From the IMG/VR virus record IMGVR_UViG_2537562190_000025: a stretch of 7,757 bases of DNA, one strand, 5' to 3'. Below the pieces are notes generated by a model. It did not search any database and was not told the DNA's origin. It saw only the letters and a list, made by a program, of their open reading frames with translations. The DNA comes from a virus. Taxonomy: Duplodnaviria > Heunggongvirae > Uroviricota > Caudoviricetes. The translations under genes were made by a program, and so were the position numbers. Shown here one piece after another: positions 1 through 7,757 of the stretch (position 1 is the stretch's first letter; the number at the start of each line of letters is the position of its first letter).

Positions 1-888
1 ATGCCGCTGCTGGATAAGCTGCGTGAGCAGTACGGGGTCGGACCGGTATGCAGTGAACTGCATATTGCCCCGTCAACGTATTACCACTGTCAGCAACAGC
101 GACATCATCCGGATAAACGCAGTGCCCGTGCGCAGCACGATGACTGGCTGAAGAAAGAGATACAGCGCGTATACGATGAAAATCACCAGGTATACGGTGT
201 GCGTAAAGTCTGGCGTCAGTTGTTACGGGAAGGTATCAGAGTGGCCAGATGTACAGTGGCGCGCCTCATGGCAGTTATGGGACTTGCCGGTGTTCTCCGG
301 GGTAAAAAGGTCCGCACTACCGTCAGCCGGAAAGCCGTTGCCGCATGCGACCGCGTAAACCGTCAGTTCGTGGCAGAACGTCCAGACCAGTTGTGGGTGG
401 CTGATTTTACCTGGGTAAGCACATGGCAGGGCTTCGTTTATGTGGCGTTCATCATTGATGTGTTCGCCGGATACATCGTGGGATGGCAGGTCTCATCATC
501 CATGGAAACAACATTCGTGCTGGATGCACTGGAGCAGGCGTTGTGGGCCCGTCGGCCGTCCGGCACAGTCCATCACAGTGATAAAGGTTCTCAGTATGTA
601 TCACTGGCCTATACGGAGCGACTAAAAGAAGCAAAACTGCTGGCATCAACAGGGAGTACAGGTGACTCGTATGACAACGCGATGGCGGAGAGCATCAATG
701 GTCTTTACAAAGCGGAGGTAATACACCGTAAGAGCTGGAAAAACCGTGCAGAAGTGGAACTGGCCACACTCACGTGGGTGGACTGGTATAACAATCGACG
801 ATTGCTGGGAAGGCTGGGTCATATCCCTCCGGCAGAAGCAGAAAAAGCTTATTATGCTTCCATCAGAAACGATGATCTGGCAGCCTGA
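1..888 (+). CDS. IS3-family transposase OrfB (DDE/integrase-core domain), IS629/IS1203-like; 5-prime end and the upstream orfA lie outside the window
   Basis: 295-aa ORF open to position 1. Motifs typical of IS3-family OrfB catalytic core (WVADFTWV, HHSDKGSQY, DSYDNAMAESINGLYKAE). From memory the protein is near-identical to IS629 OrfB. Stop at 886-888. Confidence 0.9.
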   Translation: MPLLDKLREQYGVGPVCSELHIAPSTYYHCQQQRHHPDKRSARAQHDDWLKKEIQRVYDENHQVYGVRKVWRQLLREGIRVARCTVARLMAVMGLAGVLRGKKVRTTVSRKAVAACDRVNRQFVAERPDQLWVADFTWVSTWQGFVYVAFIIDVFAGYIVGWQVSSSMETTFVLDALEQALWARRPSGTVHHSDKGSQYVSLAYTERLKEAKLLASTGSTGDSYDNAMAESINGLYKAEVIHRKSWKNRAEVELATLTWVDWYNNRRLLGRLGHIPPAEAEKAYYASIRNDDLAA

Positions 889-930
889 GTTCACAGATAA
901 AACACTCTCCAGGAAAACCGGGGCGGTTCA
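1..930 (+). mobile_element. Right-hand portion of an IS3-family insertion sequence (IS629-like); right terminal inverted repeat about 889-930
   Basis: Transposase ORF followed by 42 bp ending ...CCGGGGCGGTTCA at 930, consistent with the IS3-family 5-prime-TG...CA-3-prime termini. Its reverse complement TGAACCGCCCCGG... matches my recollection of the IS629 terminal repeat. The left end is outside the window, so the IR pair cannot be verified here. Confidence 0.7.
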
Positions 931-959
931 TTGCTTTGATTTTATTCTTATCTTTCCCA

Positions 960-1014
960 TGGTACCCGGAGCGGGACTTGAACCCGCACAGCGCGAACGC
1001 CGAGGGATTTTAAA
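960..1014 (-). other. Truncated 3-prime fragment (~55 nt) of a tRNA-Leu(UAA)-like gene: anticodon-loop 3-prime side, variable arm, T-arm, acceptor 3-prime strand and CCA. Probable att core / direct repeat of the integrated element.
   Basis: Minus-strand read: TTTAAAATCCCTCGGCGTTCGCGCTGTGCGGGTTCAAGTCCCGCTCCGGGTACCA. T-arm GCGGG-TTCAAGT-CCCGC, acceptor strand TCCGGGT, discriminator A, CCA. No D-arm or 5-prime acceptor strand (GCCCGGA expected) is present upstream, so it is not a complete tRNA. Matches recalled E. coli leuZ 3-prime half. Confidence 0.75.
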
Positions 1015-1120
1015 AACTATCAACCACCATTTATAAATCATAACATTATGATTTTATTAACTTTGAAAATGGCTCTATACAACGCCATTTGAATCTATTG
1101 TCACTTTTTATCGCCACTTT

Positions 1121-2122
1121 TTACCCTCTATTGTCAAAAGGGTTCAATTCAACAGCAGCCTCTAAATGACCTGGAGCAAAATGCGCATAACGCATAGTCA
1201 TTTTTATATCGCTATGCCCCAGTATTTTTTGCAACACAAGAATATTTCCGCCCCGCATCATAAAATGACTGGCAAACGTGTGACGTAGCACATGAGTTAA
1301 TTGCCCATCAGGAAGCTCGATCTTCGCTCTCTTAATTGCAGCGTCAAAAGCCTCATAACATGGTGAAAATAGCGCTCCTCGTTTTTTGGGAAGCATAGCC
1401 TGCAATTGAGGTGAAATCGGTACAGTGCGGTTCTTCTTTCCTTTAGTTTTAACAAATGTGATTCGACCGGGCAGTACTTGAGATTGCTTTAATCCTTCTG
1501 CTTCACTCCACCGAGCACCAGTCGCAAGCCCAATACGGACAACAACCCCCAAATCTTTATTCCGTGACTCATCACACGCAATCAGAAGGCGTTCAATCTC
1601 ATCTACATACAGAAACGCCAGTTCCTTTTCTTCCTCACGAAACTTGCGAATACCAGTCAGGGGGTTTTCACCAGACCACTCCCCAAGGCGCTTCAGTTCG
1701 GCAAAAACAGCATGTAGATATGACTGCTCGCGATTAACGGTTGCTTCACTAAGTTTTTTCTTCCCCTTGGGATTCCATTCTCCTGATAGCCTTCTTTCCC
1801 GATAAGTGGCAAACATATTTTTGTCAAACTGAGAAGCAAATGGATCTCCCAGCCTGGAACAAATCGCCTCAAGTTTGACTTTGCGCTCTGCACCAGAGGA
1901 CAAGGTTTTACCGTACATCTCAAACCAACGAGCAATCAACTCAGAAAGACGAGGACCAGAACCATCTTGAAACTCGTCTCCAACTCTACTATTCATTAAA
2001 CGGCGCTCATAAGAGAGCGCCTCACTTTTTGTCGCAAACTGTTTACGAATGCGTTTTCCCGATGCCCCGTAGGGATAACATTCGCAAAGCCATTTACCTG
2101 ATGGAATCTTACGAACCGACAT
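1121..2122 (-). CDS. int: Tyrosine recombinase / phage integrase, P2-family
   Basis: 333-aa ORF. Conserved tyrosine-recombinase boxes: GLATGARWSEA (Arg), THVLRHTFASHF (His-x-x-Arg), GHSDIKMTMRYAHFAP (catalytic Tyr). Strong resemblance to recalled P2 Int (ITFVKTKGKKNRTVPIS, LQKILGH, YAHFAP). Lies directly next to the tRNA fragment. Confidence 0.95.
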   Translation of the reverse strand: MSVRKIPSGKWLCECYPYGASGKRIRKQFATKSEALSYERRLMNSRVGDEFQDGSGPRLSELIARWFEMYGKTLSSGAERKVKLEAICSRLGDPFASQFDKNMFATYRERRLSGEWNPKGKKKLSEATVNREQSYLHAVFAELKRLGEWSGENPLTGIRKFREEEKELAFLYVDEIERLLIACDESRNKDLGVVVRIGLATGARWSEAEGLKQSQVLPGRITFVKTKGKKNRTVPISPQLQAMLPKKRGALFSPCYEAFDAAIKRAKIELPDGQLTHVLRHTFASHFMMRGGNILVLQKILGHSDIKMTMRYAHFAPGHLEAAVELNPFDNRG

Positions 2123-2127
2123 TTTAG

Positions 2128-2475
2128 TTACTTATCACATAAATCAAATGCAGCCTTAGTGACATCCCCCAGACTCTTTTTTAACCCTGGGGCGGCATCA
2201 TTATCTAGCCAAAATGGATTATTGTTATCTAACGGTAACGCACCAAATGTTTTACCTTTTATTCGAGCCAAACCTGTAAGTGCATATAACTTATTATCGT
2301 CAAAATTCATCACATAAGGATTACCATCAAGACACTGTAATTGAACCTCATCAGAATTAAATGGCCATACCCCATTGAAACTCTCACGTTCAATAGTTTT
2401 AAAAGGCATTGCGACGGCGGAAAAAGAAAACATAGATAAAAAAGTAACTAATAGTTGAACCTTTTTTACTTTCAT
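2128..2475 (-). CDS. Small secreted (signal-peptide) protein, two Cys, possibly DUF2511/YebY-like
   Basis: 115 aa. N-terminal signal peptide MKVKKVQLLVTFLSMFSFSAVA with AxA cleavage site. Strong SD (GAGGT) 6 nt upstream of ATG. Two cysteines (QLQCLDGN and DLCDK) suggest a periplasmic disulfide. Only 5 nt upstream of int, so co-transcribed. Family assignment is from memory and weak. Confidence 0.7.
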   Translation of the reverse strand: MKVKKVQLLVTFLSMFSFSAVAMPFKTIERESFNGVWPFNSDEVQLQCLDGNPYVMNFDDNKLYALTGLARIKGKTFGALPLDNNNPFWLDNDAAPGLKKSLGDVTKAAFDLCDK

Positions 2476-2504
2476 ATCATTACCTCAATTTAGCTCAAGT
2501 AAGA

Positions 2505-3155
2505 TTACAAATTAAAAAACGCCCTAGAAATGACACCGCCTACCAAAACCCCTACGCAGATAAAGAATATTATTTCTTTTGGATAAAGTCGGATTAATTC
2601 TGAAGCACGAAGTCGGACTTCTGGTAAGGTCGAACTCTCTGTGTGGCTTGATGCCGATTGTTGCTCTAACCACGACAATGCAGACTGTAACTGAGAACGA
2701 GTAAGATCGTTTAAACGTCCTGTACCGAAATTGATATGGCAATACCGCAGAAGTTTTTGTCGAAGTCCACAGTCTTCACTGTTACGTAGTAATAAACTTA
2801 CAAGAGCCTTACAGGCATCATGATCTTTACATCGCTCAAGCATTGCATGCAGAAAACTCTCCGCTGTTTTATATTGATTTACTGTCATATCATCAATACC
2901 AGCTACACCAATCTCCGCATGTACTTTTTGCCAAATAATAAACGCTTCAGTATTGCTAGCTTCTGCAATAGCAGCAACCAAGCTATTTAGCTCCTTACGC
3001 TGAGCCTTAAGCAAAGGGCGATCGTCATCATCATTATTCGAAGGGATTGCGATATTGACAGTATGAGAACCATCATATCGCTCTATCTGAATATTCTTTT
3101 CGTGAAAATCACGCCCAGCAACGCGATTGTTTGAACCGTTTGAGTTGACGGCCAT
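2505..3155 (-). CDS. Hypothetical tail-anchored membrane protein (soluble ~190-aa N-terminal domain plus single C-terminal TM helix)
   Basis: 216 aa. Strong SD GGAGGTGAC before ATG. C-terminal hydrophobic stretch IIFFICVGVLVGGVISRAFF. N-terminal segment GSNNRVAGRDFHE repeats a motif found at the C-terminus of the upstream repressor. No recognisable catalytic motif. Confidence 0.75.
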   Translation of the reverse strand: MAVNSNGSNNRVAGRDFHEKNIQIERYDGSHTVNIAIPSNNDDDDRPLLKAQRKELNSLVAAIAEASNTEAFIIWQKVHAEIGVAGIDDMTVNQYKTAESFLHAMLERCKDHDACKALVSLLLRNSEDCGLRQKLLRYCHINFGTGRLNDLTRSQLQSALSWLEQQSASSHTESSTLPEVRLRASELIRLYPKEIIFFICVGVLVGGVISRAFFNL

Positions 3156-3170
3156 GTCACCTCCCTACTA

Positions 3171-3575
3171 TCACCTACCCTTAGTTTCGTTATAGTCACG
3201 ACCAGCGATACGGTTATTACCACCAGAAATATTTAACTCACGTCCTGATGGCTGAGTTTCCTTTTCACTGATCGCACCTTTTAAAGCCCCAATCACCGCG
3301 TTTTTCACATCTAACGAAGCTGCTCGAAAGCGAGTAATCAACTCCTGCTCATCATCGTTATAAGTTTCAGGTGAGTGAATTCCCAACACAACATACTGAA
3401 CATCAAGGCCAAAACGAGACAGCGCTGCCAAATACGCAGCATCAGGAAAGCTATCTCCTTTCTCATATCTAAGCTGAGTTAGCTTTTTGACTCCACCAAT
3501 GTCGCTCATGGCAACTTGACTAAGTCCCAATCTTTCCCTTTCCTCACGCAACCGCTGACCAATATCATTTTTCAT
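3171..3575 (-). CDS. XRE-family (Cro/CI-type) helix-turn-helix transcriptional regulator; probable immunity repressor
   Basis: 134 aa. N-terminal HTH (IGQRLREERERLGLSQVAMSDIGGVKKLTQLRYEKGDSFP). Placed at the head of the leftward operon, divergent from the rightward early operon, as for P2 C / 186 CI. C-terminal tail carries the GGNNRIAGRDYNE motif. Confidence 0.85.
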   Translation of the reverse strand: MKNDIGQRLREERERLGLSQVAMSDIGGVKKLTQLRYEKGDSFPDAAYLAALSRFGLDVQYVVLGIHSPETYNDDEQELITRFRAASLDVKNAVIGALKGAISEKETQPSGRELNISGGNNRIAGRDYNETKGR

Positions 3576-3650
3576 ACAAAAACCTTGATAGGTATCTTTT
3601 TTGATACCAAAATGATTTCACGAGCTATTAGATGATCACAATATACCACT
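3576..3650. promoter_or_regulatory. Divergent promoter/operator region between repressor and rightward operon
   Basis: 75-bp AT-rich intergenic region. Palindrome GGTATC-TTTTTT-GATACC (3591-3608) overlapped by two TTGATA hexamers (3585-3590 and 3601-3606) that resemble -35 elements. Confidence 0.5.
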
Positions 3651-3857
3651 ATGAAACAAGTTCTTCACGATACCAGATCACGCATTCCGCGTAACACCGC
3701 CACAGGTCCAAGACTGGCACTTCGGCTGTCCCTTGAGGAGCGAGCCGTCATTGATGAAATGGCAGCTAAAGAACAACGCTCATCCTCTAACATGGCGCGC
3801 ATGATCTTCCTTCGCGGCCTAGAGCTAACCCAGAAAGAACAAAACAAATCTTCCTGA
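3651..3857 (+). CDS. Small ribbon-helix-helix-like DNA-binding protein (CopG/Arc-like), first gene of the rightward operon
   Basis: 68 aa. Segment RLALRLSLEERAVIDEMAAKEQRSSSNMARMIFLRGLE fits the RHH beta-strand/helix pattern. No clear SD, so possibly leaderless or the start is misplaced. Overlapping minus-strand ORF 3665-3847 judged spurious. Confidence 0.5.
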   Translation: MKQVLHDTRSRIPRNTATGPRLALRLSLEERAVIDEMAAKEQRSSSNMARMIFLRGLELTQKEQNKSS

Positions 3858-3873
3858 TCAGGAGGCTAGTGGG

Positions 3874-4077
3874 ATGTCAGGTATAACCATCAATATCAAT
3901 GTGAATGCCCCCTATGTATCCCTGCAGAAATATGCAGAGATAACAGGTATCCCTCTTAATACGTGCAAAAAGATGTTGGCTGACGGTCGAATTATTATCC
4001 GCCCCAAACGCGCCAAAATGGAAAAGCCTGAAGTAAACCTTGTGGCGATGTTAAAAGACGCTTTGGCTAACAGCTAA
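3874..4077 (+). CDS. Cox/excisionase-like small HTH DNA-binding protein
   Basis: 67 aa. Strong SD (AGGAGG) upstream. Segment PYVSLQKYAEITGIPLNTCKKMLADGRIIIR resembles recalled P2 Cox (IPYQEFAKLIGKSTGAVRRMIDKGKLPVI). Position is the same as cox/apl in P2/186-type elements. Confidence 0.6.
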   Translation: MSGITININVNAPYVSLQKYAEITGIPLNTCKKMLADGRIIIRPKRAKMEKPEVNLVAMLKDALANS

Positions 4078-4098
4078 AACAATGAACAGAGCACCATC

Positions 4099-4449
4099 AT
4101 GAAAAAAAACGCTAATAATCCATACTCCAAATTTCGTAATGGCGTAGAACGCCATGTACACCACGTCGCTACCAGTGCATCACGTAGTAACAGTCGCTAT
4201 AACCTGAACGAGACGCACGCAACACCGGATGGCCACGCTGTAAAACAAATCGGCGAGCATGCCTGGCTGATTGAGAAAGCTGGAATCGTGGTCCACAAAT
4301 GCCCACGCAATCCGTTTACCGGAAACCGCATTTTTGCATTGAACTGCGGCGACAATCACTTCGGGCAGGATTTCACATTATACGAAGCACTTCGCACGGT
4401 TGATCGTCTGCTTCGCGGGCAAAGTTTTATTAAACAGGCTGATTTATAA
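4099..4449 (+). CDS. Hypothetical protein
   Basis: 116-aa ORF in operon context with coding-like composition; weak SD. No motif recognised. Confidence 0.55.
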   Translation: MKKNANNPYSKFRNGVERHVHHVATSASRSNSRYNLNETHATPDGHAVKQIGEHAWLIEKAGIVVHKCPRNPFTGNRIFALNCGDNHFGQDFTLYEALRTVDRLLRGQSFIKQADL

Positions 4450-4459
4450 CAGGTGCTTT

Positions 4460-4738
4460 ATGACCAAAGAGCATGCACAAGGTGTATTTATCCGTTTTAT
4501 TGATTTTCGCGGTGAACTGTTATTACGCGCATCAGCTATTGATGGAGTCGTCCCATCAGAAAAAAATGCAGCTACTTACGTTTATCTGAACGGCACGCGC
4601 CTGACCGTAGAACTTCCGTACCAGACTGTACACGAAATCATTAGCGAAGCTGAAAAGGCACGTCAGGTTAATGGCGATAAACCCTATATCGAAATTATCT
4701 GCATGGATTCAGAAGCTGAAATTCAGAAAGCAGATTAA
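4460..4738 (+). CDS. Hypothetical protein (start refined to the internal ATG at 4460)
   Basis: The track ORF 4400-4738 overlaps the preceding gene. The ATG at 4460 has an AGGTG SD 5 nt upstream and follows the upstream stop (4447-4449) by 10 nt. 92 aa. Confidence 0.6.
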   Translation: MTKEHAQGVFIRFIDFRGELLLRASAIDGVVPSEKNAATYVYLNGTRLTVELPYQTVHEIISEAEKARQVNGDKPYIEIICMDSEAEIQKAD

Positions 4739-4749
4739 AGGGTGTTGCA

Positions 4750-4992
4750 ATGGACAAAGAATATAAAACACTCATCAACAAAGCACTTGAGCGTTTTTAT
4801 TTTCGCTTAAGCGCATCAGGCGTTCATGCTGAACGTGCAGCCCGTGACTCATTGACCAGGGCAATCCGGAGTCTGTATGACGTGGCTTTTTACGCTGATG
4901 ATCTGGATGCACTTAACGAACTTTCCGAGCTGATCTGTGCCGCAGAATGCGGAGAACATATTGAACCGTATAAGCTGGGGAATATCGCATGA
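4750..4992 (+). CDS. Hypothetical protein
   Basis: 80 aa. SD AAGGGTG upstream. Stop overlaps the next start (ATGA at 4989-4992). Confidence 0.6.
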   Translation: MDKEYKTLINKALERFYFRLSASGVHAERAARDSLTRAIRSLYDVAFYADDLDALNELSELICAAECGEHIEPYKLGNIA

Positions 4993-5102
4993 GTATATTT
5001 ATCTCATGGCTTGTTCTGATTATTTCGGTGGCCTGCGCCATTGGGATTATGCGAATTATTAATTCAGTGAAAAAGATCGAGCGTTTTTTCTCTGATGAAT
5101 AA
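4989..5102 (+). CDS. Small hydrophobic peptide (37 aa, predicted single TM helix); not in the supplied ORF track
   Basis: Hand translation gives MSIFISWLVLIISVACAIGIMRIINSVKKIERFFSDE, stop TAA at 5100-5102. Start overlaps the upstream stop (ATGA), with GGGGAA SD-like sequence upstream. Confidence 0.4.
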   Translation: MSIFISWLVLIISVACAIGIMRIINSVKKIERFFSDE

Positions 5103-5195
5103 CGATACAAATAAAACATCAAATTAAATAAGAAAACGTGAAAACCATCCGTATTAACGGAGGTATTCGCACACGCAAATAACGGAGATACAAAA

Positions 5196-5606
5196 ATGCA
5201 CGCAAAAGAAGAAGGTATCATCAGAGCACTGAAAGAAATTTCAAAGATGGAAAGCGAAGTAGCGAAAAAAGCCGTGGCCAATGCTCACATGGACGTCGCA
5301 ACCCACACAATGATAGTCGCAAAAGTCACGGCAGAGGCTGCCAAAATCATCGAAGAACAGGGTGTGGAACTTGCGCTTCTCAAAACTAAACCAGTCACCG
5401 GACTGGATTTATCTGACACCGGACGCCTTATTTACACTATTGGCTCGGAGCCACAGCGATACACCATTATCGCCGGATTACAGAACAAATACCTGATCAC
5501 TCCTCACCCCATAAGGGAATCAACGCTTCTGACAAATCTCCGCCTGATAGAGCGCTCTCAAGTTGCATTCATTGATGACGCCCGACACACCGTATTTAAC
5601 GCATAG
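5196..5606 (+). CDS. Hypothetical protein
   Basis: 136 aa. SD ACGGAG 9 nt upstream. Preceded by an AT-rich 93-bp spacer (possible internal promoter) containing a TAACGGAG(G/A)TA direct repeat. Confidence 0.6.
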   Translation: MHAKEEGIIRALKEISKMESEVAKKAVANAHMDVATHTMIVAKVTAEAAKIIEEQGVELALLKTKPVTGLDLSDTGRLIYTIGSEPQRYTIIAGLQNKYLITPHPIRESTLLTNLRLIERSQVAFIDDARHTVFNA

Positions 5607-5629
5607 GGTTACTGGACAAAGGGGGTGCA

Positions 5630-5833
5630 ATGGCAATTAAGCATTTTCCCGTCGTTCGCTTTACCTCCAGAGGGCGCGAATACGAGGTCGACGAACGCCT
5701 GATTACCACTATCGACAAACATCGTTCGGAAAAGGATGCACACCACATCTACCTCACTGACGGTACTTACTTCTGCGCCACCAACGTGGCGCGGGTGAAT
5801 CTTATCCGACAGGTACAGGAGCCACGCAGATGA
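5630..5833 (+). CDS. Hypothetical small protein
   Basis: 67 aa. SD AAGGGGGTG upstream. Stop overlaps the start of the next gene (ATGA). Confidence 0.55.
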   Translation: MAIKHFPVVRFTSRGREYEVDERLITTIDKHRSEKDAHHIYLTDGTYFCATNVARVNLIRQVQEPRR

Positions 5834-6096
5834 CCATTCTGGACTACATCGCTACTCATCCGGGTTGTAGCGGCGGAGAGATCGCCGCAGCACTGAATAC
5901 TCCAACCACAGCCATTAATGCTGAGTTACGCCAACTTTGGCGCGGCGGCTTAGTCATCAGAACAAACCGCAGCACAGGTGGTCGCGCTCGCAAAACTGGA
6001 GGCCAGGCTTCTTACCACGTAAACCCGATGCCGTTCGGGTGTAGCAATCCACTTACTCACATGTTTAACCAGCTACTAAAGGAAGCCAGAACATGA
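5830..6096 (+). CDS. Small winged-helix/HTH-type DNA-binding protein (putative transcriptional regulator)
   Basis: 88 aa. Segment ILDYIATHPGCSGGEIAAALNTPTTAINAELRQLWRGGLVIR has a winged-helix pattern. AGGAG SD upstream. Translationally coupled to flanking genes. Confidence 0.6.
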   Translation: MTILDYIATHPGCSGGEIAAALNTPTTAINAELRQLWRGGLVIRTNRSTGGRARKTGGQASYHVNPMPFGCSNPLTHMFNQLLKEART

Positions 6097-6392
6097 GCAC
6101 CATCAACCACCAGAAGCTACGCGAACTGGCATTTGCCCTGCAACGAATGGCAACGCCTCAAAAATTACTGGCATTTCGCGCAATGCTCTCGCCGTCTGCT
6201 GTGCTGGCACTGCTGGATGAGCTGGAGCACGCCAGAACCACGGCTCCTGCCATTCGCCTGACACTCCATCATGAAATCGCTGATTTCTGCGCGACGTTGG
6301 AGGCACCAGGCGAACCGGAAACGCCGGAAGCAATACAGCAAGAGCTGCTGCAACGCATTGACAAGGTTTTTGATTTTTTTCTGAACCAGTAA
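6093..6392 (+). CDS. Hypothetical phage protein (N-terminus reminiscent of Ead/Ea22-like prophage proteins; weak call)
   Basis: 99 aa. SD AAGGAAG upstream. Start overlaps the previous stop. N-terminus MSTINHQKLRELAFAL resembles the recalled start of Ead/Ea22-like proteins. Confidence 0.55.
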   Translation: MSTINHQKLRELAFALQRMATPQKLLAFRAMLSPSAVLALLDELEHARTTAPAIRLTLHHEIADFCATLEAPGEPETPEAIQQELLQRIDKVFDFFLNQ

Positions 6393-6714
6393 GAAACCAG
6401 AACATGCACACACAAAAAAACCGCTTGCCATGCCGCAATCAGTCAGGTTACATTTCCGCTGCACCTCATAAAACGGGTGCCGGGATTCTCAACCCGATAC
6501 AGAGCAAAGCGCATAACCGCGCCAGCGGTTTTTTTGTGCGTACTGTATTGCCACGTCTTTTTCGCGTCAGAATTATGGCGGGGCGTACGGGGCCGACTTC
6601 GGTCGGGCCGGATTCTTTGCTCTCCGGTGTTGAGAACCCTGTACGTCTCGCCACCCCGAGATTCTCAACTCTGGATGGTGAGCTATTTCTATCACCGAGC
6701 AAAGAGGCCACACC
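6393..6714 (+). other. Structured GC-rich non-coding island inside the rightward operon (candidate ncRNA / regulatory leader)
   Basis: No convincing coding frame. Contains the terminator-like hairpin (6515-6535), a stable UUCG-type tetraloop hairpin GGCCGAC-TTCG-GTCGGGCC (6591-6609), and three copies of GATTCTCAAC / GTTGAGAA (6485-6494 direct, 6629-6636 inverted, 6661-6670 direct). Confidence 0.35.
6515..6535 (+). terminator. Candidate intrinsic terminator (short GC stem plus T7 run)
   Basis: AACCGC-GCCA-GCGGTT followed by TTTTT (T-run 6529-6535). Stem is only ~6 bp, so weak to moderate. Confidence 0.4.
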
Positions 6715-6927
6715 ATGGCAAACCGCAAACAACAGCGCGCATACGCTGCGCGTCGTCACATCCAGACTGAAATCAACCGTAGACTTTTCCGCGCATCACG
6801 CGTCGCGCAAATCATGCACATCAATATGCTGCATGAGCGCAGCCACGCGCTATCGAACATCTATTCCGCCTCTGTTTTCAGCTATCTGGCGGATGATCTG
6901 CGCGAGCTGCAACAACTCTTCCAGTAG
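6715..6927 (+). CDS. Hypothetical small basic protein
   Basis: 70 aa. SD AAGAGG 8 nt upstream. Balanced helical-looking composition, unlike the overlapping 205-aa ORF in another frame. Confidence 0.55.
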   Translation: MANRKQQRAYAARRHIQTEINRRLFRASRVAQIMHINMLHERSHALSNIYSASVFSYLADDLRELQQLFQ

Positions 6928-7017
6928 CAAAACAAACTCCATTAATTCCTGTTCCGGGCCTTTCCTGCACCTTGCGGCGGGAGGCCTTCGCACATCTGTA
7001 GTAAAGAGAATTGCAGC

Positions 7018-7407
7018 ATGATTGACGCTCATGACTTCACAAGATGGGTGCGCACACAGGACACCCGTCTGGCTCCCGTTCTTCAGGGATTATTTGATCT
7101 CTACATCCGTGGTCGTGACAACAGAGCACGCACCACAAAACCAGAGAATGCAGACACCCTTTATTTCACAGTAGACGACTGCTACCGCGTGGACTTCACA
7201 CCACACGGGCTGGCGTTGCACTGCCTGACACCACACGGAGAATCACTGCTGGCGTATTACGACTCCCCGGCCTCCGTATTTGCGGCAATGCTGGCGCATC
7301 GCACTGCTGGCGGGTGTGCCTCGCTGAGTGAATACACCGCTGAATTTAACCGCCTTTCTGCCCTCTTCTCGCAGGAGTGGCAGCGCGTGACAGGATACCA
7401 GCCATGA
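7018..7407 (+). CDS. Hypothetical protein
   Basis: 129 aa. AAGAGA SD-like sequence upstream. Stop overlaps the next start (ATGA at 7404-7407). Confidence 0.55.
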   Translation: MIDAHDFTRWVRTQDTRLAPVLQGLFDLYIRGRDNRARTTKPENADTLYFTVDDCYRVDFTPHGLALHCLTPHGESLLAYYDSPASVFAAMLAHRTAGGCASLSEYTAEFNRLSALFSQEWQRVTGYQP

Positions 7408-7757
7408 GTGAGTTTGCATGGAGCTGGAATGAACCACGGCCAGCCATTGATCCGGCCAGATTTACGGAGCACAGGCAGGAAACTGAAACCGACCTGCAAC
7501 GCGCCATCCGTTACTACCTTGAGGCGGACAAAAAGGCCCGGGAAGAACAGGAAGCGAAGGAGGAAGCCTTTTTCGCACAATCCGCCATGGGTAAAAAACT
7601 CATGGCATCCCTTGAGGAAGCCGGACAGCGTGAAAAGCTGGCACAGAGCATCATCAGTAAGCGCCGGGCAACAGAACAAGACCCGGTGGCCCGTGCCTTT
7701 GCCACACTGAAGGCGCTTCCCGTTTATCTGCGAGAACCTCTGAGCCGCCACCTCTCT
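7404..7757 (+). CDS. Hypothetical protein, 3-prime partial (runs off the window); not in the supplied ORF track
   Basis: Hand translation from ATG 7404 gives MSEFAWSWNEPRPAIDPARFTEHRQETETDLQRAIRYYLEADKKAREEQEAKEEAFFAQSAMGKKLMASLEEAGQREKLAQSIISK... with no stop to the window end. Start is translationally coupled to the upstream gene. Confidence 0.5.
   Translation, partial: MSEFAWSWNEPRPAIDPARFTEHRQETETDLQRAIRYYLEADKKAREEQEAKEEAFFAQSAMGKKLMASLEEAGQREKLAQSIISKRRATEQDPVARAFATLKALPVYLREPLSRHLS

Follow-up and report, generated by a model that had tools for sequence, protein, structure and literature searches.

A piece of a tRNA-Leu gene lies just past the end of an integrase gene in a viral DNA record (IMG/VR record IMGVR_UViG_2537562190_000025; 7,757 nt, the whole of which we call the window). 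That 3' fragments of tRNA genes serve as att repeats is textbook knowledge. The question raised by this locus is whether the fragment marks the end of an integrated prophage, belongs to the attachment site of a free phage, or is a tRNA gene, working or decayed, with no part in integration.

The leuZ fragment and the phage genes beside it

We found that the fragment (960-1014, minus strand) is the 3' end of leuZ, the gene for tRNA-Leu(UAA). With K-12 NC_000913 and strain RM11911 as sources of the leuZ reference sequences, the reverse complement of these positions, TTTAAAATCCCTCGGCGTTCGCGCTGTGCGGGTTCAAGTCCCGCTCCGGGTACCA, agreed with the 3' end of E. coli K-12 leuZ at 55/55 positions. It begins with base 1 of the 7-nt anticodon loop, takes in this loop, the 3' anticodon stem, the variable arm, the T arm and the 3' acceptor strand, and ends at CCA. 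No other copy of the 55-mer is present in the window, and in 200 shuffled sequences no match was found (0/200) with up to 3 mismatches allowed. ARAGORN called no tRNA anywhere in the window, and the Rfam tRNA model gave only a 13-bit match to the T arm, compared to a gathering score of 29. The other Rfam matches between positions 850 and 1150 were at chance level (E from 0.23 to 8, well under the gathering thresholds). The first-pass annotation had claimed, from the letters of the window, that only the 3' ~55 nt of the gene is present, from the anticodon loop to CCA, and that a tRNA finder would fail to call a complete gene. Both claims held.

The two edges of the fragment differ. At the 5' edge the identity to the tRNA breaks sharply: the window reads ...GATAGTT|TTTAAAA where leuZ reads ...CAAGGGA|TTTAAAA, and the anticodon loop TTTAAAA (1008-1014, minus strand) is the first sequence that the two have in common. 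At the 3' edge, identity to the leuZ locus runs on below position 960 to approximately 930. These ~30 nt (930-959, minus strand) are the start of 3'ETS-leuZ, the 3' external transcribed spacer, and agree at every base with K-12 and with the two RM11911 copies. Base 930 can be assigned either to this spacer or to the insertion sequence described below.

We found that the neighboring gene encodes a tyrosine integrase of the HP1/P2 type (1121-2122, minus strand; 333 aa; Pfam Int_N and Phage_integrase). Its position agrees with the original proposal that the body of the element, with int, lies at the higher coordinates. Aligned over its full length, Int has 58% identity to HP1 Int (E = 2e-139), and it matched the structures of the HP1 Int catalytic domain (PDB 1aih, 4.6e-75) and of P2 Int (5c6k, 3.6e-54). 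Residues R204, H277, R280, H303 and Y312 align with R207, H280, R283, H306 and Y315 of HP1 Int, and all five are conserved.

The int gene is transcribed toward att, and its stop codon is 106 bp from the core. The 106 bp between them (1015-1120, minus strand) are the phage P arm and are identical to the P arm of RM11911. They contain two TGGCG(A/T)T motifs on the minus strand (1110-1116 and 1081-1087) and an AT-rich inverted repeat at approximately 1033-1053. The P' arm of the relatives has three copies of the TGGCG motif with 11-bp spacing; such 7-mers also occur elsewhere in the window. We regard the TGGCG(A/G)T motifs as putative arm-type sites for Int. HP1 strand exchange was reportedly mapped to the anticodon stem-loop, and HP1 Int is said to bind arm repeats. 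This biochemistry and the point at which identity begins suggest that strand exchange here would take place inside the 7-nt anticodon loop. We reconstructed attP from the two prophage ends. No virion-derived genome with this int was found; the sole close record in the phage collection, NC_049344, is itself a prophage taken out of a chromosome.

The rest of the leftward (lysogenic) block lies upstream of int, at 2128-3575. From Pfam matches and RefSeq annotation it encodes a DUF2511/YebY-like protein (2128-2475, minus strand; 115 aa), an Flk_N-like protein (2505-3155, minus strand; 216 aa) and an HTH repressor-like protein (3171-3575, minus strand). The first two genes, between the repressor gene and int, are cargo-like and are kept in every assembly that encodes this Int. 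PADLOC gave no defence-system match for the ORFs of the int-repressor interval, and the repressor-like protein had weak HTH matches only.

The rightward early block begins with an ORF at 3651-3857. The second ORF (3874-4077, plus strand) encodes a Cox-like small DNA-binding protein, a candidate excisionase and switch protein. It is labeled "Cox-like excisionase and repressor" in NC_049344 and is weakly similar to HP1 Cox (26% over 57 aa; pairwise E = 6e-6). DUF4761 and DUF4754 proteins are also encoded by the rightward early genes. Annotations of the repressor/cox switch conflict: NC_049344 has a 68-aa "Arc-like repressor" at 3651-3857 (plus strand), and RefSeq E. coli annotation over the switch DNA has a 45-aa hypothetical protein at 3665-3802 (minus strand). 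Further along, some assemblies show 6404-7021 (plus strand) as a 205-aa ORF with a weak Phage_ASH match; in the identical sequence RefSeq has only a 70-aa internal ORF of the Derepression family (6715-6927).

A 124-bp repeat at the ends of prophages in leuZ

We found that the phage part of the window is present in E. coli chromosomes as a prophage in leuZ. Positions 930-7757 are identical (6828/6828) to several O103:H2-type STEC chromosomes, and among 5426 complete E. coli genomes, 386 contain at least 80% of this interval. The phage modules farther downstream vary from strain to strain in a mosaic fashion. Strain 2011C-4315 (100% identical) has, in this order, uvrC, pgsA, glyW, cysT, an intact leuZ, a 35.6-kb P2-like prophage, int, the fragment and yecA. 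Strain RM11911 (99.9% identical) has the same layout with a prophage of 36.7 kb. In K-12 MG1655, leuZ, 3'ETS-leuZ and yecA follow one another with no insert, which is the empty site.

These comparisons bear on a further statement of the first-pass annotation, that a second copy of the core should sit in an intact tRNA-Leu gene at the far end of the element, and on the comparison with an empty-site strain that it proposed. The second copy was found in the relatives, at a distance of 35,561 bp in 2011C-4315 and 36,655 bp in RM11911, and in K-12 leuZ leads directly to yecA. From the identical relatives we infer that an intact leuZ is also present at the far end in the window's own genome.

The prophage of 2011C-4315 has genes for ogr, hok, tail, lysis, head, portal/terminase, ParMR and a replication endonuclease. 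Both ParM/ParR-like partition genes and, near the far att end, a Hok/Gef toxin gene are found in the prophages of the relatives. The prophage of the O103-type strain also has a serine O-acetyltransferase gene beside the tail-fibre genes. These genes of the relatives are located at 14392-15667 and 40534-40674 of the retrieved RM11911 locus (L001) and at 15807-16379 of the 2011C-4315 locus (L005).

We found that the repeat extends beyond the tRNA. When the two RM11911 copies (4962-5085 and 41617-41740 of L001) were extended, they formed an exact direct repeat of 124 bp, made up of 55 nt of tRNA and 69 nt downstream. The idea of a duplicated att core was correct, but the length of ~55 bp given for it was not: the additional 69 bp are 3'ETS-leuZ with its terminator. 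The block is present twice in RM11911 (L001), twice in 2011C-4315 (L005) and once in K-12 (2247-2370 of the retrieved locus, L002). The annotated 67-nt 3'ETS-leuZ small RNA of K-12 (2249-2315 of L002) falls entirely within it. Past the 124 bp the two copies diverge fully: one is followed by the yecA flank, which is also found in K-12, and the other by phage DNA. The block ends just past a 9-bp stem and U7, which by folding are the terminator of the glyW-cysT-leuZ operon. A scan with a consensus terminator missed this minus-strand structure; it was clear on folding, and we used the folding result.

RyhB and RybB are both titrated by the 3'ETS-leuZ sponge. The sponge pairs with RyhB and drives RyhB decay, and it has a Rho-independent terminator at its end (PMC6191717). 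Lysogens have two full copies of 3'ETS-leuZ, and the displaced one closes the repressor-to-int gene block on its 3' side. At the level of titles and abstracts, we found no literature link between ETSleuZ and a prophage. The duplication of the sponge by the att repeat is a small descriptive addition, not a new type of system.

All 12 other loci with this int that we inspected have the full 124-bp block at the corresponding position, followed by yecA. In the 10 assemblies with an identical Int that were examined besides RM11911 and 2011C-4315, the block occurs once, beginning 106 bp past the int stop codon, and yecA comes ~357 bp after int. An O157:H7 genome also encodes the identical Int (WP_001300279.1) beside yecA, with the full 124-bp block.

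Across 5425 genomes the 124-bp core occurs 7105 times, that is, with approximately 1700 extra copies. At least one other type of element is found at the same leuZ site. In E. coli NZ_OW849064.1 a second full core (4001-4124 of the retrieved locus, L018) lies beside yecA with tail genes adjacent, and the integrase is not the one described here; judging from sequence, this is either a different element or one in the opposite orientation at the leuZ site.

Based on these comparisons, we think it highly probable (roughly 0.9) that positions 930-1014 are the int-proximal att junction of a P2-like (Peduoviridae, Xuanwuvirus-type) prophage in leuZ, the last gene of the glyW-cysT-leuZ operon. The HP1-type integrase would recombine an attP whose core copies 124 bp of the host, beginning at the anticodon loop of tRNA-Leu(UAA) and extending to where the operon ends. 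Were the crossover at the anticodon loop and the operon to stay intact, the phage would have to carry everything up to the operon end. Upon integration, leuZ would be rebuilt in full from phage DNA, with its spacer and terminator, at one prophage end. The original 124 bp would be displaced to the opposite end, where they lie beside yecA and 106 bp downstream of int, and it is this displaced copy that the window probably contains. An IS3-family element would later have transposed into the displaced copy ~30 nt past CCA, hiding the rest of the spacer and the flank.

For annotation, the fragment sets the boundary of the prophage: on the int side the core ends at 1014, and the P arm occupies 1015-1120. 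The proper label for the 55-nt piece is att repeat rather than tRNA pseudogene.

An IS3-family element in the core, and other readings of the junction

We found that the sequence on the other side of the core is an insertion sequence. Positions 1-930 (plus strand) are the right-hand part of an IS3-family element. Its transposase gene, orfB, occupies 1-888, with the ATG start codon at the very first base of the window, and its terminal inverted repeat closes with ...GGTTCA at 925-930. The family assignment is based on the DDE transposase encoded by orfB, which matched Pfam rve, HTH_21 and rve_3, and on TG...CA terminal inverted repeats. The terminal repeat suggests that the element is IS629/IS1203-like. 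The part in the window is 100% identical to an IS3-family copy on the 2011C-4315 plasmid NZ_CP024480.1. Its end also matches a copy in strain 2011C-4251 (L004; 97% identical) that begins TGAACC... at the left, has the inverted repeat TGAACCGCCCCGG at that other end, and is annotated in RefSeq as an IS3 family transposase with programmed frameshift.

The element sits ~30 nt into the displaced copy of 3'ETS-leuZ and cuts the 124-bp block. Because it occupies the lower coordinates, the flank there is not chromosomal. The first-pass annotation had placed the flank of the integrated element on this side, and on this point it was mistaken: ~30 nt of the block are followed directly by the IS.

The junction between the IS and att was absent from complete E. 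coli genomes, where the best matches all begin at window position 930. An exact 41-mer spanning the junction had no match in species-representative genomes, and in the 10 assemblies with an identical Int the core was followed by yecA in all cases, with no IS there. The copy in 2011C-4251 (2175-3430 of L004), an insertion independent of the one in the window, lies beside the intact leuZ, ~135 bp from the core on its phage side. Insertions near the leuZ att region may therefore recur, and the region may be a recurrent IS target.

The presence of the IS might also indicate a more complicated history, in which the fragment is an att scar but an IS-mediated deletion or inversion has uncoupled this end of the prophage from the other. 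There would then be no matching intact leuZ and no precise excision. An IS3-family element does abut the core, copies of this family are found at up to 51 places per genome in these lineages, and prophage-associated inversions have been reported in STEC (PMC8767318). However, the IS is complete up to its proper terminal repeat, which is what a simple insertion would give, and 6.8 kb on the prophage side match intact prophages at 100% identity, with no positive sign of rearrangement. We consider such an uncoupling quite unlikely.

A second reading is that the window contains the attP core of a free or episomal phage, or the internal junction of a tandem double lysogen, into which the IS inserted. 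The attP does not differ from the int-proximal junction anywhere in the P arm or the 124-bp core, and the only sequence that distinguishes the two is covered by the IS. Since the IS replaces everything past 30 nt of spacer and the two structures have the 124 bp in common, the window alone cannot separate them. The ParM- and ParR-like partition genes of the phage would also fit an episome. The related genomes argue the other way. Matches to the phage region were at 8365 chromosomal places, compared to 4 on plasmids, and yecA followed the core in 12/12 inspected loci with this int. Integration in the chromosome between leuZ and yecA in every relative inspected makes the prophage junction far likelier than attP, and we regard the latter as very unlikely.

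Two readings leave integration out. One is that the fragment is a tRNA pseudogene, left by decay or by truncation by the IS, and has nothing to do with site-specific integration. The partial tRNA does adjoin an IS, but its truncated 5' end faces the P arm and not the IS, and the breakpoint is the same to the base in hundreds of genomes that have no IS there, and in each of these leuZ is intact at the opposite prophage end. The paired intact leuZ and the 124-bp repeat in the relatives refute this reading, to which we give almost no weight. A functional phage-encoded tRNA-Leu, for which nothing beyond the 3' half speaks, is the least credible of all and is refuted by the ARAGORN result, by the Rfam tRNA score far under threshold, and by the sequence on the 5' side, where GATAGTT... 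mismatches the 5' anticodon strand AAGGGA of leuZ and neither a D arm nor a 5' acceptor strand is found upstream.

If the window is the prophage junction, as we think, the position of the two spacer copies might have consequences for the host. It is doubtful that the duplication of the sponge RNA matters for the physiology of lysogens and that the host of the IS-bearing strain depends on the 3'ETS-leuZ copy of the phage. Were this true, the copy supplied by the phage would hold the native place behind leuZ, and the displaced copy would be the 3' end, probably the terminator, of the repressor-to-int transcript, from which prophage transcription could yield extra sponge RNA. In the strain of the window the IS would have destroyed the displaced copy, and precise excision would leave leuZ without its spacer and terminator.

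Comparison with known systems

A prophage att scar in leuZ is known biology, and the element is in a leuZ-integrating group of P2-like phages with HP1-type Int that is widespread in STEC. The gene is the site of prophage Sp13 in E. coli O157:H7 Sakai (PMC8190617), of a prophage in STEC O121:H19 (PMC8767318) and of an integrative element in O145:H28 (PMC7067040). The site is the same in Sp13 and the leuZ prophages of non-O157 STEC; among the genomes examined, only the copy in the window has an IS3-family insertion in the displaced core.

The closest phage record is Escherichia phage 520873 (NC_049344; Peduoviridae, Xuanwuvirus), which is 93.9% identical over 71% of positions 930-7757 and has the same int/att region. 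It differs in being a prophage cut from a chromosome, and it begins inside yecA and has a split int and an IS100 insertion. Phage P88 has only the early region in common, and its integrase differs (39% identical). The element resembles P2 in phage type and in the order int, repressor, cox, replication gene A and late genes. P2 attB sites are not known to lie in tRNA genes and have only a short core in common with attP. In contrast, the core of the phage described here is a 124-bp copy of the end of a tRNA operon.

Among the closest known systems is the integration system of Haemophilus phage HP1. The corresponding locus in the H. influenzae chromosome has Gly(GCC)-Cys(GCA)-Leu(UAA)-Lys(UUU) in one operon and is orthologous to glyW-cysT-leuZ. 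The annotated attP of HP1 is directly downstream of int, and on the int-sense strand it reads TTTAAAATCCCTCGCC...GGGCACCA, followed by a spacer and a complete tRNA-Lys. The identity blocks of HP1 and of this phage both begin at TTTAAAATCCCTCG. H. influenzae 51P10H1 has a Gly-Leu-Lys and a Gly-Cys-Leu-Lys cluster (L071 and L073), each with the exact 55-mer of the HP1 core, and these are two potential HP1-type attachment sites.

In both phages a block identical to the host starts at the tRNA-Leu(UAA) anticodon loop and continues as far as the operon does. The order int, P arm, operon-end copy and P' arm is the same, with int transcribed toward attP. Both have TGGCG(A/G)T arm motifs, with 11-bp spacing in HP1 and in the P' arm of the relatives, and a Cox-like protein at the early-gene switch. 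The two systems differ in what the block contains: in HP1 it is ~181-182 bp and ends in a complete tRNA-Lys, whereas here it is 124 bp and ends in the small-RNA spacer and terminator. They also differ in host and phage group (Haemophilus and Hpunavirus compared to E. coli and a Xuanwuvirus-type phage), and the N-terminal, arm-binding part of Int is more diverged. The duplication of the sponge and the target held in common with HP1 leave current understanding unchanged. A modest addition is that the target site and the design of attP are conserved between HP1 of Haemophilus and these phages of E. coli.
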